Sequence record: NC_010105.1
Source of the DNA: Escherichia phage JS98
DNA: 64,000 nucleotides
Direction: 5' to 3' (one strand)
A program made the position numbers and the translations under genes. The first letter of the stretch is position 1. Every line of letters starts with the position of its first letter. This document shows positions 1-53,262 of the stretch, in pieces. The notes beneath the pieces are model-generated. The model was not told where the DNA came from. It searched no databases and worked only from the letters and a program-made list of their open reading frames with translations.

Positions 1-1701
<1,701 letters not shown>

Positions 1702-1730: not shown

Positions 1731-3713
1731 ATGGCTTTATTATCACCGGGCATTGAGCTCAAAGAAACGTCCGTACAGAGTACTGTCGTTCGTAACGCAA
1801 CGGGTCGTGCAGCGCTGGTTGGTAAATTCCAGTGGGGCCCTGCTTTCCAGGTAACTCAGATTACCAATGAAGTTGAACTGGTTGATTTGTTTGGAGGTCC
1901 TAATAACGAAGTAGCAGATTACTTTATGTCTGGTATGAACTTCCTCCAGTATGGTAACGACCTTCGTACAGTTCGTGTCGTTAGTCGCGAATTTGCTAAA
2001 AACGCATCTCCTATCGCTGGTAATATTGAAACCACTATTACTACGGCTGGTTCCAACTATGCTGTAGGCGATAAAATTAATATTAAATATAACCAAACTG
2101 TAGTCGAATCTGAAGGTCGTGTGACTTCTGTAGATACAGACGGTAAAATTCTTTCTGTGTTTATTCCGTCAGCAAAAATTATTGCTTACGCACGTTCTTT
2201 AAACCAGTATCCTACCCTAGGCCCGGCTTGGACTGCTGAAGTTACTTCCGCCTCTTCGGGTGTTTCTGGTACTATTACCGTAGGTAAAATTGTTACGGAT
2301 TCCGGTATTCTTTTGACTGAAGCCGAGAATAGTGAAGAAGCTATTACTTCTCTTGAATTCCAAGCGGCCCTTAAGAAATTTGCTATGCCAGGCGTAGTGG
2401 CCCTTTATCCTGGTGAAATTGGTTCTACTCTGGAAGTAGAAATCGTTTCTAAAGCAGCTTATGAAGCTGGTTCTTCTAAAATGTTGGATGTTTATCCTGG
2501 TGGCGGTACCCGTGCTTCTATTGCCAAGGCAGTATTTAATTACGGACCTCAAACAGATGACCAATACGCAATTATCGTTCGTCGTGATGGCGCTATCGTA
2601 GAATCCGTCGTACTTTCTACCAAAGAAGGTGAAAAAGACGTTTACGGTAATAACATTTATCTTGACGACTATTTCGCTAAAGGTACTTCTAATTACATCT
2701 ATGCGACCTCGTTAAACTGGCCGAAAGGATTTAGTGGTATCATTAATCTGTCTGGTGGTATTTCCGCCAACGATAAAGTTACTGCAGGCGATTTGATGCA
2801 GGGTTGGGATTTGTTTGCCGACCGTGAAGCACTCCATATTAACCTGCTTATTGCTGGTGCTGTTGCTGGTGAAGGCGATGAAGTGGCTTCTACTGTTCAG
2901 AAACACGTTGTGAGTATTGCTGATGAACGTCAGGATTGCTTAGCATTTATTTCTCCTCCTAAAGGTCTGTTGGTTAACGTTCCACTGACTCGTGCAGTAG
3001 ATAACCTTATCGACTGGCGTACCGGTGCCGGTACTTTCGATGCCAACAACATGAACATCAGTACCACTTATGCCGCTATTGATGGTAATTATAAATATCA
3101 ATACGACAAATATAACGACGTAAACCGTTGGGTACCACTGGCTGCCGATTTGGCTGGTTTGTGTGCACGTACTGATGATGTGTCTCAACCTTGGATGTCT
3201 CCTGCCGGTTATAACCGTGGTCAGATTCTTAACGTTCTGAAATTGGCAATTGAACCACGTCAAGCACAACGTGACCGCATGTACCAGGAAGCTATTAACC
3301 CGGTTGTTGGTTTTGCTGGTGGTGATGGTTTCGTATTGTTTGGTGATAAGACTGCAACTAAAGTTCCATCTCCGATGGACCACATTAACGTTCGCCGTCT
3401 GTTCAACATGCTTAAGAAAAATATCGGTGATGCCTCTAAATATAAACTGTTTGAATTGAACGATAACTTCACTCGTTCAAGCTTCCGTATGGAAGTTTCT
3501 CAGTACTTAGATGGTATTAAGGCACTTGGTGGGATTTATGAAGGACGTGTGGTTTGTGATACTACAGTGAACACCCCTGCGGTTATCGACCGTAATGAGT
3601 TTATTGCTAATATCTATGTTAAACCTGCTCGTTCTATTAACTACATCACGTTGAACTTCGTTGCAACGAGCACTGGTGCTGATTTTGATGAATTGATTGG
3701 ACCTTTAGTATAA
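1731..3713 (+). CDS. 18: Tail sheath protein gp18
   Basis: 660 aa ORF (T4 gp18 is ~659 aa), position after gene 17, sequence MALLSPGIELKETS... matches T4 tail sheath. Confidence 0.93.
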   Translation: MALLSPGIELKETSVQSTVVRNATGRAALVGKFQWGPAFQVTQITNEVELVDLFGGPNNEVADYFMSGMNFLQYGNDLRTVRVVSREFAKNASPIAGNIETTITTAGSNYAVGDKINIKYNQTVVESEGRVTSVDTDGKILSVFIPSAKIIAYARSLNQYPTLGPAWTAEVTSASSGVSGTITVGKIVTDSGILLTEAENSEEAITSLEFQAALKKFAMPGVVALYPGEIGSTLEVEIVSKAAYEAGSSKMLDVYPGGGTRASIAKAVFNYGPQTDDQYAIIVRRDGAIVESVVLSTKEGEKDVYGNNIYLDDYFAKGTSNYIYATSLNWPKGFSGIINLSGGISANDKVTAGDLMQGWDLFADREALHINLLIAGAVAGEGDEVASTVQKHVVSIADERQDCLAFISPPKGLLVNVPLTRAVDNLIDWRTGAGTFDANNMNISTTYAAIDGNYKYQYDKYNDVNRWVPLAADLAGLCARTDDVSQPWMSPAGYNRGQILNVLKLAIEPRQAQRDRMYQEAINPVVGFAGGDGFVLFGDKTATKVPSPMDHINVRRLFNMLKKNIGDASKYKLFELNDNFTRSSFRMEVSQYLDGIKALGGIYEGRVVCDTTVNTPAVIDRNEFIANIYVKPARSINYITLNFVATSTGADFDELIGPLV

Positions 3714-14125: not shown

Positions 14126-14199
14126 AACAATTCTCTCGTTGAGTCGGTAAAACTCATCTTAACATAGAATTTTTAACTTGTAAACAGGAATTTTGTACT

Positions 14200-34411: not shown

Positions 34412-34447
34412 TTTATTCTCCAGTTTGTTTTCGTATTATTTGGTACA
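34409..34447. repeat. 39-bp direct repeat, copy 1 (identical leader/RBS/start of two adjacent ORFs)
   Basis: CATTTTATTCTCCAGTTTGTTTTCGTATTATTTGGTACA identical to 34815..34853. Confidence 0.85.
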
Positions 34448-34484
34448 GGTCTATAATAACACAACCTGTACCAAAGTAAAACAT
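34412..34484 (-). promoter_or_regulatory. PeSL-like early promoter with 12-bp perfect inverted repeat (TTTGGTACAGGT...ACCTGTACCAAA)
   Basis: IR arms 34439..34450 and 34464..34475 flank a -10-like TATTAT; TTTTAC -35-like 17 nt upstream. Confidence 0.45.
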
Positions 34485-34817
34485 TTATTTCACAACATTC
34501 CAATTTTTCATATCAAGTTTACCAACTTTTTTCATCTGAGCAATCAGACGTTCAGCACGTGTACGGGCATTAACGTAATAGAATTCACCAATTTTGTTTT
34601 CTTCAATACGGCCAGTAATTACAGTTTTCAGTTCATAAATCCAACCTGTAAAGAAGTTGTGAAGCTCGATGGTAAATGTGAAATCAGTACCCATACCTTC
34701 AGTTGTTTCAACTTCGATGATATCACCTTCAACTGCAGTCAGGACCCACATGGTTTCTTGATATTCACCGTTGAAACATTTAGCTTTAACAGATGCGTTC
34801 AGGTTTACAGTTTTCAT
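34485..34817 (-). CDS. Hypothetical protein (110 aa), PeSL-flanked cassette ORF
   Basis: ORF with same leader as 34046..34411. Confidence 0.5.
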   Translation of the reverse strand: MKTVNLNASVKAKCFNGEYQETMWVLTAVEGDIIEVETTEGMGTDFTFTIELHNFFTGWIYELKTVITGRIEENKIGEFYYVNARTRAERLIAQMKKVGKLDMKNWNVVK

Positions 34818-34853
34818 TTTATTCTCCAGTTTGTTTTCGTATTATTTGGTACA
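34815..34853. repeat. 39-bp direct repeat, copy 2
   Basis: Exact copy of 34409..34447. Confidence 0.85.
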
Positions 34854-34887
34854 TGTCTATAGTATCATGCCTACCGGAGATGTATAC
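34818..34887 (-). promoter_or_regulatory. PeSL-like early promoter (GTATAC-N17-TACTAT) driving 34485..34817
   Basis: -10 TACTAT at 34859..34864 with conserved GCATGATACTATAGAC core. Confidence 0.4.
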
Positions 34888-34904
34888 CCTTTTTTTAAAG
34901 ATTT

Positions 34905-41842: not shown

Positions 41843-41901
41843 TTTGTTTTCTCCTCATTAGTTGGTAAGTCTATACTAACACATCATGAGGAGATGTAAA
41901 C
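41843..41901 (-). promoter_or_regulatory. PeSL-like early promoter (GTTTAC-N17-TAGTAT, AGACTTACCAACT)
   Basis: -35 at 41896..41901, -10 at 41873..41878, then GAGGAG SD. Confidence 0.5.
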
Positions 41902-43049
41902 TACTCTACCACAATTTCTTTCAAATATTTTTCAGGGATTTGGGCCTTATGATTTTTCAAGAACACAGAGTTAATCTGGTCCATGACCGTATCATAATTA
42001 ATACCGTCTACGTACGCCTGCATAAGAATAGAGAACAGCCCTGGGAAGTCTTTGAGGATTAACTGACCGGTGACAGCATAGTCTTTACGGTCACGGCCTT
42101 TGAGCTGAGAATATGCCGCTTCTAACAAAGCCAAGGACTGTTCTAAGTAGTCTAAATGGATACGTTCAAATGCATTGATTTTCTCGATAGCAAATGAATC
42201 AGTGCTGAACAAACCTCGGAGGTCATCGGTTCCGCCAGCCACTACAACTTCAAACAAACGTTCGTTATTGTTAATGGAATCTTTGGTATGATGCAGTGCG
42301 CTATACCAAGCGGTTTTGAGTTTAAAGAACGTGCCATCTTTAAGTACAAAGATAAAGCCTTCAATACCCTCTTGTTTACGGATATTGTCAACAAAATCGC
42401 CTTCAGAGAGTTCATAGCTTTTAACCAAATGCTTACGCAGAGCGCCATCTTTAAACAGTTCAGCGTAAGGGATATATTCACCCGTTTCGTTATTACGAAC
42501 GTTCAGTAAGATAAGGTTTGTTTCTTGGTAAGCCAGCACAATACGGTTAGTAGGCGAAACATACTCGAGGTTACATGTATAGCCTGCTTTAGTAATTTCT
42601 TCTAAACGAGCAGCGAAGGCCTCGTTTTCAGGGAGTCGAAGGAAACGTAAAGAATCATGTACCATCGACGAGTGGATAGAGCCTTTAGATTTAACAGAAA
42701 GATATTGTCTGTCCATGAAGGTAGAAATCAAGGAACCATCTTCCTTAGCCATTACGAGGTCGATATTTTCTTGTGATAAATCCAAACCAATAGTCAATGG
42801 ATTTTCATCGAGATTAAAGAACTTTTGCATAGGGCGAGCAGCGATACGTACAGGACCGTTCTCGTCCATTTCAAACATAATGCCTCGGCACTCTAGTGCG
42901 CCGTCTTCCAACCAATCACTGTACGATGCATAGTTATAACTAAAGATGCGATAGTTGACTCCTAGCGCACTCTGGAAGTCTTTAAAGAAGAACTTAGATT
43001 TAGTCGAGTTTTTAACCAAAGTCATCAAGTTATCATATAATTCAATCAT
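41901..43049 (-). CDS. rnlA: RNA ligase 1 (Rnl1)
   Basis: 382 aa; YRIFSYNYASYSDWL..ALECRGIMFEM matches T4 Rnl1. Confidence 0.92.
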   Translation of the reverse strand: MIELYDNLMTLVKNSTKSKFFFKDFQSALGVNYRIFSYNYASYSDWLEDGALECRGIMFEMDENGPVRIAARPMQKFFNLDENPLTIGLDLSQENIDLVMAKEDGSLISTFMDRQYLSVKSKGSIHSSMVHDSLRFLRLPENEAFAARLEEITKAGYTCNLEYVSPTNRIVLAYQETNLILLNVRNNETGEYIPYAELFKDGALRKHLVKSYELSEGDFVDNIRKQEGIEGFIFVLKDGTFFKLKTAWYSALHHTKDSINNNERLFEVVVAGGTDDLRGLFSTDSFAIEKINAFERIHLDYLEQSLALLEAAYSQLKGRDRKDYAVTGQLILKDFPGLFSILMQAYVDGINYDTVMDQINSVFLKNHKAQIPEKYLKEIVVE

Positions 43050-47355: not shown

Positions 47356-48212
47356 TCATACAGCCATCTTAGCCTTAATAGTAGGGTGCGATTCATAACC
47401 TTTAAGAACAAAATCAGACGGCTTCATTGAATCAACCCAAGACAGTTGTGTCTTAGTGTCCCAAAGAATAAACTCTTCCGGTAAATTAATTTCTAATTCA
47501 CAAAGCTCTTTAGGCTCACGACGAAGAACTTCTTGGCATTGTTCAACGTGATTAGAATAGATATGCGTATTGCCGCCTGAGAACACTAAATCGCCCGGAA
47601 TAAGATTACACATCTTAGCTACAATATGCACAAGAGCGGCGTAAGAGGCGATATTAAATGGCAATCCTAAGAACACGTCAACAGAACGTTGGTACCACTG
47701 GAGGTCAAGATGGCCATTACGAACGTTGAACTGATAAAAACAATGACATGGTGGAAGAGCCATCTGGTCGATTTCAGCCGGGTTCCATGCGGATACGATT
47801 TGACGTCGGTCATTAGGCATCTTTTTAATACGGTCGATAATTTCTACAACCTGGTCGACCCCACCAAAATCTCGCCATTGTTTCCCGTATACCGGGCCTA
47901 GTTCACCACTATGATACCCTAGGTCTTTGGCCTGATTTTCATAGTTCTCGTCCCAAATAGTTTTACCGTCAATTAATGAACCGTGAGTACGGAAACGAAG
48001 GTCGTTAACGTTTGTTGAACCCGAAAGGAACCAAAGGAGCTCAGCAATACAGGCTTTCCATGCTAATTTTTTAGTTGTTACCGCAGGAAAGCCTTTAGTT
48101 AAATCAAAACGTAATTTAGTACCGAACAGTGCAATTGTACCGGTTCCAGTGCGGTCGTCGGTTTCGTAGCCATTTTCCAGGATATCTTTAATTAAAAATT
48201 GATATTGTTTCA

Positions 48213-48225
<13 letters not shown>
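47356..48225 (-). CDS. td: Thymidylate synthase (intronless)
   Basis: 289 aa; active-site PPCHCFYQF; uninterrupted ORF. Confidence 0.95.
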
Positions 48226-49337
<1,112 letters not shown>

Positions 49338-49338
<1 letters not shown>

Positions 49339-49583
49339 TATAGCACCTCAACATGTGTGATATCGTTTGGCCAAATAATGTCATGATGGTTATAATAGGA
49401 AATATCACCCTTAACAAAACGATAATTATTACCACGGCCTTGCTCCCAGGCCAAAGATACCTTATGGAGGTTTTCATAACGGTCCCTGACCCAAAAGGAT
49501 TCGTCATATGCAGTATTATTATAAAGTCTATCCAATTCTGCTTCGGTACCAGTAAACTCTTTTAAATTGATAGTAATTTGCAT
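49338..49583 (-). CDS. Hypothetical protein (81 aa from Met with GAGGA SD)
   Basis: ORF track to 49724. Confidence 0.45.
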
Positions 49584-49593
49584 TATATTTTCC

Positions 49594-49833
49594 TCACGCT
49601 TTCTTAGCGATTTTCCAGTCAGCTTTAAATTGGTCAACATCAGAATGGTGAATCCAGAAACCAGATGAGCTACCATCTTCATAAAGAGGACAACCATCAC
49701 ACTCATCTTTCCAGCCCATTTCACACAAAGCTTGTTCGGCTTTTTCCAGAGCTTCCGGATTGCTACCTTGGATTGTGAAGTACCATTTGCCTTTAACTTC
49801 AGAATCTTTAATTGATTCGCGTTGTAATTTCAT
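49594..49833 (-). CDS. Hypothetical protein (79 aa), PeSL-flanked
   Basis: ORF with own early promoter; Cys pairs (CEMGWKDECDGC). Confidence 0.5.
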   Translation of the reverse strand: MKLQRESIKDSEVKGKWYFTIQGSNPEALEKAEQALCEMGWKDECDGCPLYEDGSSSGFWIHHSDVDQFKADWKIAKKA

Positions 49834-49891
49834 TTTATTCTCCTCAAGTTGATAAGGCTATAGTATCACTACCATAGCCTTAGGTAAACAC
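49834..49891 (-). promoter_or_regulatory. PeSL-like early promoter (GTTTAC-N18-TACTAT, AGCCTTATCAACT)
   Basis: -35 at 49884..49889, -10 at 49860..49865; 8-bp IR AAGGCTAT/ATAGCCTT. Confidence 0.5.
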
Positions 49892-50119
49892 TTATTTTTG
49901 AATTAAGCCCATATAAAATTCAGCGTCTTCAGCATGCATACCATCGCAATATTCATCAGCCATAAAGCGGGTAAGGTCTTCAAGAGGACCTTGAACTTCA
50001 ATTTGCATACTACAGAATTGTGTGTCTTTGATATAAGTCATAGTCAAAGAAGGATAACGATTACGGATAACTTCGTAAGTGTATTCAAAATCAACGATAT
50101 CAATATTAACCTTAGCCAT
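49892..50119 (-). CDS. Hypothetical protein (75 aa), PeSL-flanked
   Basis: ORF with own early promoter. Confidence 0.5.
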
Positions 50120-50182
50120 TTTATTTTCCTCACTCGTTAGTTGATAGGTCTATAGTATCATGCCTATAGACCTTGTAAACAT
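50120..50182 (-). promoter_or_regulatory. PeSL-like early promoter (GTTTAC-N17-TACTAT, AGACCTATCAACT)
   Basis: -35 at 50175..50180, -10 at 50152..50157; 9-bp IR GGTCTATAG/CTATAGACC. Confidence 0.55.
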
Positions 50183-50443
50183 TTATTTTTGAATTTTATC
50201 AAGCCATTTACCAAGCTTAATCATTTCTTTGGTAGCTTTTTCCATACTTCTGAATTTAACCAGTAAGGGTTGAGCATCAACACCCATAACTAAGGTGGTT
50301 ACAAGACTATGTTCGCCTACAAGCCATAACGAATACGTTTGGATATCGAGGCCGTAATTTCGGTCTTTATGAACTCGTACACCCATCACTTCAAATTTCT
50401 CACTGGCTTTTTCTACTGCATCCAGGAAATCATCTTTAGTCAT
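50183..50443 (-). CDS. Hypothetical protein (86 aa from internal Met)
   Basis: ORF track to 50506; start chosen abutting upstream stop. Confidence 0.4.
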   Translation of the reverse strand: MTKDDFLDAVEKASEKFEVMGVRVHKDRNYGLDIQTYSLWLVGEHSLVTTLVMGVDAQPLLVKFRSMEKATKEMIKLGKWLDKIQK

Positions 50444-50444
50444 G

Positions 50445-50828
50445 TTAGGCCTTAAAAGTTTTTTGCAAAAGTTCAATAATTTGGTCGACGTTCTGTTCAG
50501 TGACAATGCAATGGATTTGGGTCACGCCGGTCTTAGTAACAGGTTTGTCAACTTCATCTTGTCCATCATATTCACGGAAGCAATAGAACTCATCTTCATG
50601 CAATTCAAAATATTCCTCTAGTGTTCCGTCTGCACTAAAAATCTTGCCATTAGCACATTTTATTTTAGTTACAAATTTATCCCCATCTGTGGTCGTTGTA
50701 TCCTTTACTTCAAACCACCCACCGTTTTCTTGGATAATATCGACCATATCATTATTATTGATAGGGGTGATATTGATAAAAGCTTTGATACACTCAGGGC
50801 GAAGTTCGTATTTTTTACCAATTTTCAT
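50445..50828 (-). CDS. Hypothetical protein, tandem paralog B (127 aa)
   Basis: Shares conserved positions with 50832..51203 (GKKYEL/GKFYVL, EEYFELHEDEF/DEYFELGEWEF, QIIELLQKTF/EVVALIKATF). Confidence 0.5.
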   Translation of the reverse strand: MKIGKKYELRPECIKAFINITPINNNDMVDIIQENGGWFEVKDTTTTDGDKFVTKIKCANGKIFSADGTLEEYFELHEDEFYCFREYDGQDEVDKPVTKTGVTQIHCIVTEQNVDQIIELLQKTFKA

Positions 50829-50831
50829 TTT

Positions 50832-51203
50832 TTAAATTCCAAAGGTAGCTTTAATCAAGGCAACAACTTCTGCCGCATTTTTGTGATTTACCTGCACATG
50901 AATGGTTTGGGTATCAACAGCAGGAGCATCGCCATCAACTTCCAGGAAGTGACAGAATTCCCATTCACCGAGTTCAAAGTACTCATCAGAATCACCCATA
51001 CTATTCAGGATGGTGCCATCTTTCATTTCAACTTTTTCAACAAAATAAACACCTTCAATACAACGCATATCCAGGACTTTGAAGGAATTGCCATGTTGTT
51101 CCAACAACCTGACTATGCACGAATTATAATTATCATCAGGACTACCAGCGGTGAATTGTTTTTTGGCAGCAGGGTCTAATACGTAAAATTTACCAGTTTC
51201 CAT
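50832..51203 (-). CDS. Hypothetical protein, tandem paralog A (123 aa)
   Basis: Paralog of adjacent ORF; own early promoter. Confidence 0.5.
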   Translation of the reverse strand: METGKFYVLDPAAKKQFTAGSPDDNYNSCIVRLLEQHGNSFKVLDMRCIEGVYFVEKVEMKDGTILNSMGDSDEYFELGEWEFCHFLEVDGDAPAVDTQTIHVQVNHKNAAEVVALIKATFGI

Positions 51204-51270
51204 TTTTATTTCCTCATGTAGTTGATAGGTCTATAGTATCATGTTTAAAGGCATTGTAAACCATTAAATG
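51204..51270 (-). promoter_or_regulatory. PeSL-like early promoter (GTTTAC-N17-TACTAT, AGACCTATCAACT)
   Basis: -35 at 51256..51261, -10 at 51233..51238, GAGGA SD. Confidence 0.55.
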
Positions 51271-51313
51271 CCAAAAAGGGAAGACCGAAGTCTTCCCATT
51301 ATAAATCAATAAC

Positions 51314-52219
51314 TTATAGACCAGCTAACAGGTCGTCCAGACCATCGTCATCAGAAGGACTTACTGATGGCTCAGGAGTAGTGGAACGGGTCGGTGTAGA
51401 CGGTTTAGAATCATATGCATCAAGGTCTGCACTGAATGCGTCCAGGTCATCACCAATCTTATCAGCAGCTGCAGAAGCTTTAGCGGCAGCACCACCAAGA
51501 GCAGCAGTACCAACAACTTTCTTAAACTTGGCTTCGTTAGTTTCAAAAGATTTGAACTCGAGCAGTTTAGAAAGGTCGTGCATTTCTTCCATCAATTTAG
51601 CTTGGTAAGCTTCATCATTGATGTTAGGAATTTCAGACTGACCCATGAATTTGGAATCGTCGTAGTTTTTGAAGTCACCAACTTTCTTAGATTTCAGTAC
51701 GAAGTTAGCACCATCAAACGGACATGTTACGTCAACCGGCACTTCACCAATATCAGTATCAACTTCAACCATCTGGTTGATTTTATCCATAATTTTCTGA
51801 CCGAAACGGAATTTAAACACTTTACCTTCGTTAGCAGGCACTGCACTATCCTTAATAACAAGGATGTTAGCCCAGAAGGAAGTTTTACGTTTCATCAGTT
51901 TGTATTCGGCGTTATTAGTATTATACGTATCGTTCTGGTTCATGTATTTACATACAGGACAAGAATCGAAATCACCGTGAGTAGACGTACAGTTTTCAAT
52001 GTACCATTGACCATTTTTCTTAAAGCCGTGGTTAACGAGCTTAACGAATGGAGATGGATTTTCTTCGTTTTTCGAAGGTAGGAAACGAATTACCGCAGTA
52101 CCAACACCATTGTCATCTTTCAATTTCCATTCAGCTTTATCATCGGAAGAGAAAGAAGAACCACCTTTCATTGCAGACAGTTGAGCAGCCAGTTGGGAAG
52201 GGTCTTTACGTTTGAACAT
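51314..52219 (-). CDS. 32: Single-stranded DNA-binding protein gp32
   Basis: 301 aa, same as T4 gp32; [19 protein letters not shown]..., zinc site (C..H..C..C), acidic C-terminus. Confidence 0.95.
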
Positions 52220-52309
52220 ATTATTTACCTTAGCAGATTTTAGCAGTTGTATTTTATTAACAGTTTTTAACAGATTGAGTTAGTATATTAACACATTTAA
52301 TATGAAGCA
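52220..52309 (-). promoter_or_regulatory. Gene 32 leader; candidate translational autoregulatory operator
   Basis: AU-rich unstructured leader with repeated CTGTTAA/CTGCTAA before SD; T4 gp32 represses its own translation through such a leader. Confidence 0.4.
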
Positions 52310-52963
52310 TTAAAACTTACAAGATTTGATAGTTTCAATGAACAATTTACGAGCTTCTAAATTATCGATTATAAGAATTTTCTTATAAGCATTTAATTTA
52401 GTCGAATACTTAGACCACACTAAATCGTTGGTCTGTTCATCATGTTTATTTATTATATCCATAAATGAATCAAGCAAAATAAACGTTTCGAATGAAATAA
52501 CATTCGATTGGAGGAGCTTAAAAATATAGCTCGAGTTAACTTTTTTATTATACTCAAAAATTTCAGAAAGCGCTTGAACTTCCACTTTCTTACTGAAATA
52601 ATAGATGTTTTTGATATCATCCTCAAAAACTTGTTTTATTCTTTTAAGTCTACCGATATATTCTCGGTAAAAGACTAAGGCGTCAGCATCACTGATGTCG
52701 CCAATCCATGCGTCTTGGTTAGCCACCAAGTTACTCATGAAGATAAGAGCAAGCTCTTTCAAAGTGTATTTATCACTCAATTTCTCGAAGAAATATTTGT
52801 CACGACGTTTTTGGTAAGCCGTATCAGAGATTCGCATGACCCAGTTATATTTTATAACGTCGTATTTGGCATTGAAGTGATGTTTGAGCATTAAGTATAG
52901 TGAATATACGCTCTTACCATTCACCATACGGTTATTGTTTGGTGGCATGCGAATCTTAATCAT
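52310..52963 (-). CDS. 59: Helicase loader gp59
   Basis: 217 aa; matches T4 gp59 (KYDVIKYNW, ANQDAWIGDISDADALVFYREYIGRLK). Confidence 0.9.
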   Translation of the reverse strand: MIKIRMPPNNNRMVNGKSVYSLYLMLKHHFNAKYDVIKYNWVMRISDTAYQKRRDKYFFEKLSDKYTLKELALIFMSNLVANQDAWIGDISDADALVFYREYIGRLKRIKQVFEDDIKNIYYFSKKVEVQALSEIFEYNKKVNSSYIFKLLQSNVISFETFILLDSFMDIINKHDEQTNDLVWSKYSTKLNAYKKILIIDNLEARKLFIETIKSCKF

Positions 52964-53262
52964 AACAAGAAATCCAGGGTATTAGTTTTTTGCGTTCGTG
53001 CCATTGAAGGACGAAGCAAGTTATCATCAATGGCCTCGTTCATAATTTTATCAATAATTCCTGCAGGCAAATAACGAGCAAAGTTACCTTCAGGGATACT
53101 GTTCTCTTCCAACCATGCGGTAGCCGCTTCGAGATAGCTACATCCTTCAGCCTCAACAAAGGCCTCAATATCAAGGCCATTCTGTTGTTTATTTACCAAT
53201 ACATGGACAGGTTCAGAAGCGGTATTAACCGCTCCATCAAAATCATTCAAAGATTGTGTCAT
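52960..53262 (-). CDS. 33: Late transcription co-activator gp33
   Basis: 100 aa acidic protein, position between 59 and dsbA. Confidence 0.75.
   Translation of the reverse strand: MTQSLNDFDGAVNTASEPVHVLVNKQQNGLDIEAFVEAEGCSYLEAATAWLEENSIPEGNFARYLPAGIIDKIMNEAIDDNLLRPSMARTQKTNTLDFLL

Follow-up and report, generated by a model that had tools for sequence, protein, structure and literature searches.

Why should a phage promoter contain an inverted repeat between its -35 and -10 hexamers, and what could such a repeat do for the small genes downstream of it? The question is raised by a stretch of 64,000 nucleotides from Escherichia phage JS98 (NC_010105.1; the whole stretch is called the window in the following), in which small genes located between gene 32 and frd are preceded by copies of one early-promoter element. 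A reading of the letters alone (the sequence-only reading) had described positions 49338-51270 as a hyperplastic array of small accessory open reading frames (ORFs), each flanked by a conserved promoter/stem-loop cassette, and had likened these cassettes to the promoter early stem-loops (PeSLs) of T4-type phages. From a comparison of related sequences we consider it probable that the locus is an accessory array of JS10-like Dhakavirus phages which consists of three PeSL-headed modules, with the stem acting on read-through RNA and the cassettes serving as homology for recombination.

Cassette anatomy and module structure

The repeated upstream element is real. GTTTAC and TACTAT separated by 15-20 nucleotides were found five times in the window, whereas 0.16 occurrences were expected and none of 100 shuffles reached five; TACTATAGNCNTATCAACT with up to three mismatches was found six times as compared with 0.25 expected. 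All seven copies listed in the sequence-only reading (10118, 34412, 34818, 41843, 49834, 50120 and 51204) share the order of -35, -10, AGAC box, Shine-Dalgarno (SD) sequence and ATG. In full, the cassette is composed of an A-rich UP-like tract, GTTTAC, a spacer of 17 or 18 nucleotides, TGn, TACTAT, AGACCTATCAAC, the SD sequence and ATG. It is a genome-wide unit of roughly 75 nucleotides, the A-rich tract of which has a family mean of 71% A+T, as against 60% for the window. Of 11 promoter-like candidates in the 64 kb, three are crowded into 1.4 kb in the array, and four further early-type candidates (-35 at 14185, 25998, 40610 and 54531) are without the AGACCTATCAAC box. The MotA-box pattern of middle promoters does not occur inside the array, and an Rfam scan of 48000-53000 gave no match at E values up to 1.

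All genes of the gene 32-frd interval are on the minus strand, as are the array features given here, and seven ORFs lie between gene 32 and frd. A repeat search in this region returned one family with three copies of 48 nucleotides (49846-49893, 50138-50185 and 51219-51266), and in addition a 21-nucleotide repeat that spans the -35, the A-rich tract and, beyond it, the final codons (IQK, stop) of the preceding ORF. A segment with SD sequence and ATG is repeated too, and 49853-49865/49870-49882 was returned as an inverted repeat. Cassette 1, P(frd.2a), extends over 51201-51266, with the -35 GTTTAC at 51256-51261, TGn, the -10 TACTAT at 51233-51238, AGACCTATCAAC at 51221-51232, the SD sequence GAGGAA at 51210-51215 and the ATG at 51201-51203. 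In cassette 2, P(frd.3) (50117-50195), the -35 is at 50175-50180, the -10 at 50152-50157, the SD sequence at 50126-50131 and the ATG at 50117-50119. Cassette 3, P(frd.1) (49831-49904), has its -35 at 49884-49889, a spacer of 18 nucleotides, the -10 at 49860-49865, the SD sequence GAGGAG and the ATG at 49831-49833. GAGGA(A/G) stands 6-7 nucleotides ahead of the ATG in all three. Cassettes 2 and 3 are preceded by the A-rich AATTCAAAAATAA; cassette 1 has the T-run of a terminator there instead. The same AATTCAAAAATAA forms the common end of frd.3 and of the 86-codon ORF (Ile-Gln-Lys-stop), so that one stretch of DNA both closes a reading frame and supplies the A-rich tract ahead of the next -35 (49884-49904 and 50175-50195, minus strand).

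One cassette heads each of three modules, namely P-frd.2a-frd.2b-orf86, P-frd.3 and P-frd.1-orf81-orf113-frd. The sequence-only reading had counted at least four units in 49338-51270, but only three cassettes are present, and they serve seven ORFs. Nor is every ORF flanked by a cassette: the ORFs of 127, 86, 81 (49338-49583) and 113 (48997-49338) codons follow the upstream gene directly and have an SD sequence only. The last two of them had been missing from the earlier list.

Hairpins in the promoters

In two of the three array cassettes the promoter contains a hairpin, the 5' arm of which lies between -35 and -10 and the 3' arm over the -10 and the next 6-7 nucleotides. The hairpin of cassette 2 (50146-50173) has the 5' arm AGGTCTATAG in the promoter spacer (50164-50173), a loop of 8 nucleotides and the 3' arm CTATAGACCT (50146-50155), which comprises the last 4 nucleotides of the -10 and 6 nucleotides beyond; the stem AGGTCTATAG/CTATAGACCT has 10 base pairs and -15.6 kcal/mol (z -3.68). 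In cassette 3 (hairpin 49853-49882) the 5' arm TAAGGCTATGGTA (49870-49882) and the 3' arm TACTATAGCCTTA (49853-49865; the whole -10 and 7 nucleotides) enclose the loop GUGA, and the RNA stem TAAGGCUAUGGUA-GUGA-UACUAUAGCCUUA has 13 base pairs including one G.U (z -3.45). When the spacer was shuffled and the partner kept fixed, P was 0.0005 for each of these stems. Cassette 1 (-35 at 51261) has no such hairpin (fold z -0.40). Thus the proposal that the arms differ between copies and yet stay complementary is borne out by two array copies, with stems as described or better, and fails for the third.

The seven listed copies taken together are not uniform either. Copy 34412 (stem at 34481) has the strongest stem in the window, 12 base pairs of TTTGGTACAGGT/ACCTGTACCAAA with a z of -5.25; in copy 41843 the spacer pairs with the SD region; and the stems of copies 10118 and 34818 are weak and interrupted. 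The cassettes at 34425-34495 and 34830-34900 (minus strand) are located about 400 nucleotides apart and have a near-identical leader of about 40 nucleotides (...GTACCAAATAATACGAAAACAAACTGGAGAATAAAATG) with different genes downstream. The one at 34830-34900 is preceded by a canonical terminator, and its stem is weak.

Covariation across related cassettes

For a larger comparison, IMG/VR was scanned for the exact pattern of the -10/discriminator box. The scan yielded 82 loci, and a single Dhakavirus genome had at least 10 copies. Together with the window and the frd-32 interval of related phages, these loci supplied 121 distinct cassettes in 60-63 ortholog groups. The consensus of 60 groups is AaAaAat-GTTTAC, TGn (49 of the 60) and TAcTAT-aGaCCTATCAA. 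The AGACCTATCAAC box after the -10 (e.g. 50140-50151) corresponds to the discriminator and the first transcribed bases with a putative +1 A, and its positions are 60-78% conserved over the 60 groups. To our knowledge, no known promoter element accounts for it. The T4 frd.3 mRNA is among the most abundant NAD-capped RNAs of T4 according to a preprint, to which the AGACCTATCAAC box may or may not be related.

In a partner-swap test over 63 groups, the mean duplex energy was -10.33 kcal/mol for spacers with their own partner and -7.65 kcal/mol for swapped pairs, a difference reached in 0 of 20000 permutations (z -8.9, which overstates independence insofar as the set was partly collected by its -10/discriminator motif and the groups are interrelated). 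Split by region, the region from -10 to +10 gave a z of about -8 and the SD leader a z of about -3.3, each significant, whereas the reversed-spacer control gave -0.97. When pairs were counted in a fixed register over 108 aligned 40-mers, percent pairing and covariation were higher than in any of 500 shuffles, and this register scored best among seven slid ones. A single fixed-register structure pairs only 43.5% of the cells of these 108 cassettes, since stems occur in several registers; for this reason we relied on the register-free partner-swap test. Single promoters illustrate the covariation. Between loci L011 and L010 of our set, P(frd.3) exhibits a compensatory change from G-C to A-U that involves position 3 of the -10, and the orthologous arms of P(frd.1) are AGGGTA/TACCCT in T4 as compared with AAGGCT/AGCCTT in the window. 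Complementarity of the spacer to its own partner is thus highly non-random over the 60-63 groups, in agreement with the selection on a hairpin that the sequence-only reading had argued for.

Alternatively, the palindromes might be operators at which a dimeric DNA-binding protein of the phage or the host shuts off early promoters. They overlap the -10, and the mechanism by which T4 early promoters are shut off is not fully explained (PMC2988021). However, what cassettes have in common is the complementarity of the arms and not their sequence, and many early promoters have no palindrome. We rejected this explanation as highly improbable, and chance likewise.

The mismatches within stems were asymmetric, with 14 G.T and no A.C, although no more than about six of these events arose independently and the 3' arm is under constraint from the promoter. 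The asymmetry suggests a structure on the transcribed strand. Alternatively, the hairpins could be functionless by-products of templated (quasi-palindrome) mutation or of recombination between cassettes around CTATAG, with selection acting on the promoter only. Quasi-palindrome correction is a classic mutational process of T4. CTATAG, in the -10 region, reads the same on both strands and turns up again in spacers, and close relatives have hairpin-less alleles at the same promoter. Yet the partner-swap test remained strongly significant although motifs shared between cassettes are controlled for in it, arms of unrelated sequence exist (GGGAAC, AGGGCTAT, TTTGGTACAGGT and GGAGCA), and both the lack of A.C mismatches and the distribution of hairpins relative to terminators described below speak against a mere by-product. 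We regard this explanation as rather unlikely.

Terminator exclusion and the role of the stem

A terminator scan reported a single minus-strand site inside the array, the intrinsic terminator of gene 32 (51273-51297; GGGAAGAC-UUCG-GUCUUCCC, then T5), and neither promoter hairpin qualified. This terminator is located 11 nucleotides upstream of the -35 of cassette 1, i. e. of the cassette that has no hairpin. The same relation was seen over the groups. Behind a canonical hairpin-plus-T-run terminator, a -10 hairpin was present in none of 10 groups, as compared with 18 of the 50 others (Fisher p 0.025, Mann-Whitney p 0.010), and the mean stem energy was -2.9 kcal/mol in terminator-preceded cassettes and -8.3 kcal/mol in the others. 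T4 is similar in that its P(frd.1) has a stem, whereas the promoter that follows its gene 32 terminator has none. Hairpins that arose as by-products of mutation would not be expected to be absent just where a terminator already precedes the promoter, and a role of the inverted repeats in DNA (see below) does not predict this exclusion. The exclusion supports the view that the stem handles transcription arriving from upstream, which agrees with the published view of PeSLs (PMC2839356); promoter and terminator activity of PeSLs in RB49 and phi1 is described there.

How the stem could do this is suggested by its position. The start site would lie about 7 nucleotides past the -10, the usual sigma-70 distance; the 5' arm would therefore be outside the cassette's own transcript, and the stem would form only in read-through RNA. 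The sequence after both focal stems is AUCAACU without a U-tract, which argues for a mechanism other than classical intrinsic termination. Rho-independent terminators resemble the cassettes in having a stable stem-loop directly after the upstream gene, but differ from them in their U-tract. The hairpin probably acts on such RNA, be it by attenuation, by providing a site for processing or by stabilising a 3' end. It would thereby insulate each module and stand in for a canonical terminator.

Several points weigh against this interpretation. The start site was placed by spacing alone. Without a U-tract, the focal hairpins are ruled out as canonical intrinsic terminators. The hairpin is dispensable at P(frd.3), where IME08, VR5, QL01 and ABTNLS3 have a hairpin-less allele. 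The motif-based collection of the cassettes and the small number of independent G.T events, both mentioned above, belong here as well. With regard to the recombinational role, about half of the insertions and deletions (orf81, orf113, frd.2a/2b) end at microhomologies of the SD/ATG junction and not at promoter cassettes.

Pairing of the spacer with the SD region

Sequestration of the ribosome-binding site was considered for the focal cassettes and rejected: their 3' arms end at 50146 and 49853, at least 14 nucleotides upstream of the SD sequence. The cassette at 41845-41915 on the minus strand (41901; listed copy 41843) does have this feature. Its spacer TCTCCTCAT is a perfect 9-nucleotide complement of its own SD region ATGAGGAGA (z -2.14). 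Other cassettes have the spacer/SD pairs ATCTCCTGTAG/CTACAGGAGAT, TCTCCATTA/TAATGGAGA and CTCCAGTAG/CTACTGGAG, and ATCTCCGTTTG/CAAACGGAGAT is found at the same orthologous gene as the first of these. The design, with compensatory changes of the arms, recurs in many Dhakavirus cassettes. Such pairing would hide the SD sequence on read-through RNA only.

A similar arrangement is known from the hairpins that sequester the ribosome-binding sites of T4 e, soc, 49 and I-TevI (Uzan and Miller 2010, PMC3014915). There the promoter is located inside the hairpin, and read-through RNA alone folds, as would be the case for the spacer-SD class represented by copy 41901 and many Dhakavirus cassettes. Those promoters, however, are late promoters of single genes, and the focal cassettes leave the SD sequence free. 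At sigma-54 promoters, the downstream gene is reported to be expressed less from read-through transcripts when the promoter contains a pyrimidine-rich anti-SD motif (bioRxiv 10.1101/086108); these are bacterial promoters, and the likeness extends to the spacer-SD class only, which is known here from sequence. In the text available of the PeSL papers (Arbiol 2010, Comeau 2014) no mention of a spacer-SD class or of terminator exclusion was found, and a term search of the available text of Arbiol 2010 found neither sequestration nor translation mentioned.

A more general hypothesis would cover both kinds of pairing. Each spacer in Dhakavirus and T4-type early promoters might be an antisense arm tuned to one of two targets in its own cassette, the -10/+1 region or the SD sequence, as in a systematic insulation code. 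Pairing with the -10/+1 region would then lead to attenuation or processing of read-through RNA, pairing with the SD sequence would keep that RNA from being translated, and the cassette's own transcript would stay free. The autonomy of the cassettes would let modules shuffle without a change in expression. We put this forward tentatively and consider it less likely than not. If the modules are indeed insulated, small genes could move between positions and between phages at a fixed expression level, and the cassettes would be compact natural promoter-insulator parts.

Gene-order shuffling

Along its entire length, the region 48400-52300 shares 96.7% identity with Escherichia phage JS10 (Straboviridae, Tevenvirinae, Dhakavirus), and 577 phage records match it with decreasing coverage. 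In 12 phages the gene 32-frd interval exhibits at least eight gene arrangements, and promoter-bounded modules change place between them; the description of the array as hyperplastic was therefore apt. P-frd.2a(-orf86) with a hairpin promoter of its own (GGGAACAT/ATGTTCCC) is found before frd.3 in L011 and after frd.3 in IME341 and L014. The order in T4 is 32, frd.3, frd.2, frd.1, frd. In QL01 and ABTNLS3 the hairpin spacer of P(frd.3) is swapped for the exact spacer of P(frd.2a), and a near-identical one is present in IME08 and VR5. This replacement looks like a conversion between cassettes. Judged by these comparisons, cassette-bounded shuffling occurs as in the PeSL model.

Other rearrangements have their ends elsewhere. 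Either frd.2a or frd.2b is missing, depending on the phage, and the break falls where the two paralogs resemble each other, at their 5' ends. About 19 nucleotides around their start codons are similar (50814-50832 for frd.2b and 51189-51207 for frd.2a, minus strand), and phages with a single frd.2 are joined exactly here. The presence or absence of orf81 is delimited by direct repeats of TATAATG (49336-49342 and 49581-49587, minus strand), at which IME281 and dhabil are joined exactly; TATAATG consists of SD-proximal sequence and the ATG. This suggests that orf81 was deleted or inserted by microhomology rather than through promoter cassettes. orf113 and an ORF of 75 codons are also present or absent among relatives. 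Taken together, both kinds of repeat, i. e. the cassettes and the short SD/ATG sequences, would serve as recombination homology by which modules are moved, converted, duplicated and deleted among relatives.

The inverted repeats could contribute to this shuffling as DNA, if hairpins or cruciforms stalled replication or were cut by a structure-specific nuclease and so created recombination hot spots, any effect in RNA being incidental. Module boundaries and allele conversions coincide with cassettes, and PeSLs are reported to form mini-circles by recombination and to halt DNA sequencing reactions through their stem-loops (PMC2839356). But in RB49 the crossovers are placed between the -10 and the SD sequence and not in the stems, and plain homology of repeats of about 75 nucleotides already accounts for recombination. 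The asymmetry of G.T and A.C, moreover, favours one strand. We consider a DNA role unlikely, and action of the stem on read-through RNA, with the cassettes providing the homology, probable.

Two features of T4 (NC_000866; positions are those of locus L097 of our set) are located in the corresponding interval. An unannotated hydrophobic ORF of 22 codons (MFAPYIMAAVMLVCLYLLIKAC) with a good SD sequence (GGAG) lies between the early promoter and frd.1 (1216-1284, minus strand) and has no Dhakavirus counterpart. Between frd.3 and frd.2 (about 1755-1785, minus strand) there is a bare stem-loop, AGGGGCT-AUCA-AGCCCCU, without promoter or U-tract, which looks like the stem-loop-only relic of a cassette.

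Relation to known promoter elements

The resemblance to PeSLs noted in the sequence-only reading could be confirmed in detail. As defined in the PeSL papers (Arbiol 2010, PMC2839356; Comeau 2014, PMC4122927), a PeSL combines an A/T-rich tract with a sigma-70 early promoter, a stem-loop, which can lie between -35 and -10 or overlap the -10, and an SD sequence with a start codon. A genome has many PeSLs, which are concentrated in hyperplastic regions, where they precede small genes of unknown function, and are tied to insertions and deletions, replacements and displaced ORFs between close relatives. Their -35 and -10 are 17 +/- 1 nucleotides apart, and the consensus of the PST/T4 pair, TTTACW-N17-TAYWAT, is similar to that of the window cassettes. 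All three array copies have GTTTAC-17/18-TACTAT with TGn; two have internal stems and the third has the gene 32 terminator beside it; and A/T-rich tract, SD sequence with start codon, copy number and association with insertions and deletions are likewise as in PeSLs. At the level of sequence every defining PeSL feature is thus present, and the cassettes are further examples of PeSLs and not a new type of element.

There are differences nevertheless. The window cassettes are from Dhakavirus, for which the accessible PeSL text mentions only 'PeSL-like sequences' near gene 43 of JS98. Their stems are A/U-rich and copy-specific, whereas those of the PeSLs described there are of the form G(n)-loop-C(n), and they have the additional conserved AGACCTATCAAC box after the -10. 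Relative to the available PeSL text, the quantitative covariation, the AGACCTATCAAC box, the spacer-SD class and the terminator exclusion are new as leads, not as a new category. PeSLs are hereby extended to Dhakavirus, with partner-swap covariation, strand asymmetry and terminator exclusion providing quantitative support that the original descriptions, as far as accessible, lacked.

T4 early promoters have an UP/-35/TGn/-10 architecture (Hinton 2010, PMC2988021). With them the cassettes share the A-rich tract, GTTTAC, the spacing of 17-18 nucleotides, TGn, a strong -10 and additional consensus positions. T4 P(frd.1) and P(frd.3) are orthologous to the window promoters. The same architecture is found at the orthologous T4 promoter. 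In contrast to T4, the -10 in the window is TACTAT instead of TATAAT, and discriminator and initial transcribed sequence are much more conserved in the cassettes.

Array proteins and neighbouring genes

The array is bounded upstream by gene 32 (51314-52219, an ORF of 301 amino acids; single-stranded DNA-binding protein, annotated as gp32 in JS10) and downstream by frd (48416-49000, dihydrofolate reductase). Four of the ORFs in between belong to Pfam families: frd.2a (50832-51203, 123 amino acids) and frd.2b (50445-50828, 127 amino acids, no cassette upstream) to FRD2 (PF03197; E 2.3e-33 and 9.3e-39), frd.3 (49892-50119, 75 amino acids) to Phage_FRD3 (PF05798, E 9.9e-39) and frd.1 (49594-49833, 79 amino acids) to DUF5417 (PF17438, E 5e-35). 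The scores exceed the gathering thresholds by far, with 115 and 132 bits for FRD2 (cut-off 29), 132 for Phage_FRD3 (28.1) and 120 for DUF5417 (23.9). frd.2a and frd.2b are 35% identical as proteins. The ORFs of 86 (50183-50443, no promoter of its own), 81 (49338-49583; absent from IME281 and dhabil) and 113 amino acids (48997-49338; absent from IME08, ABTNLS3 and QL01) match only PHROGs of unknown function (4423, 4308 and 8592, respectively).

The earlier statement that the ORFs have no recognisable function needs to be qualified accordingly: FRD2, FRD3 and DUF5417 are the families of T4 frd.2, frd.3 and frd.1, all of which are themselves of unknown function. By sequence, the array ORFs are conserved Tevenvirinae accessory genes and not ORFans. 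The suggestion that they act in anti-defence found no support. PADLOC and NCBIfam gave no match for the seven ORFs, nor did PDB sequences for the five ORFs searched, and nothing points to a specific anti-defence role of the accessory families Frd.1, Frd.2 and Frd.3. Single-sequence AlphaFold2 models of Frd.3 and Frd.1 (pLDDT 83.6 and 74.5) are both small alpha/beta sandwiches; in Foldseek searches against the PDB their best matches had E values of 0.04 or worse and template-modelling (TM) scores of at most 0.56, i. e. nothing significant was found. T4 Frd.2 has a predicted LSm-like N-terminal fold that is also present in GoF and MotB.1, and a frd.2 amber mutant is viable (PMC12152347). In a CRISPRi-ART screen, frd.2 alone among the T4 genes of unknown function was scored as a fitness gene (PMC11879866).

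Beyond the array boundaries, a segG-like homing endonuclease gene adjoins gene 32 in VR5 and has no counterpart in JS98. On the other side, an ORF of 68 amino acids (48213-48419, minus strand) lies between td and frd; it occurs in some relatives and is absent in IME08, VR5, QL01 and ABTNLS3. td itself (47356-48225, minus strand) is an uninterrupted ORF in the window, whereas T4 td is joined from two pieces.

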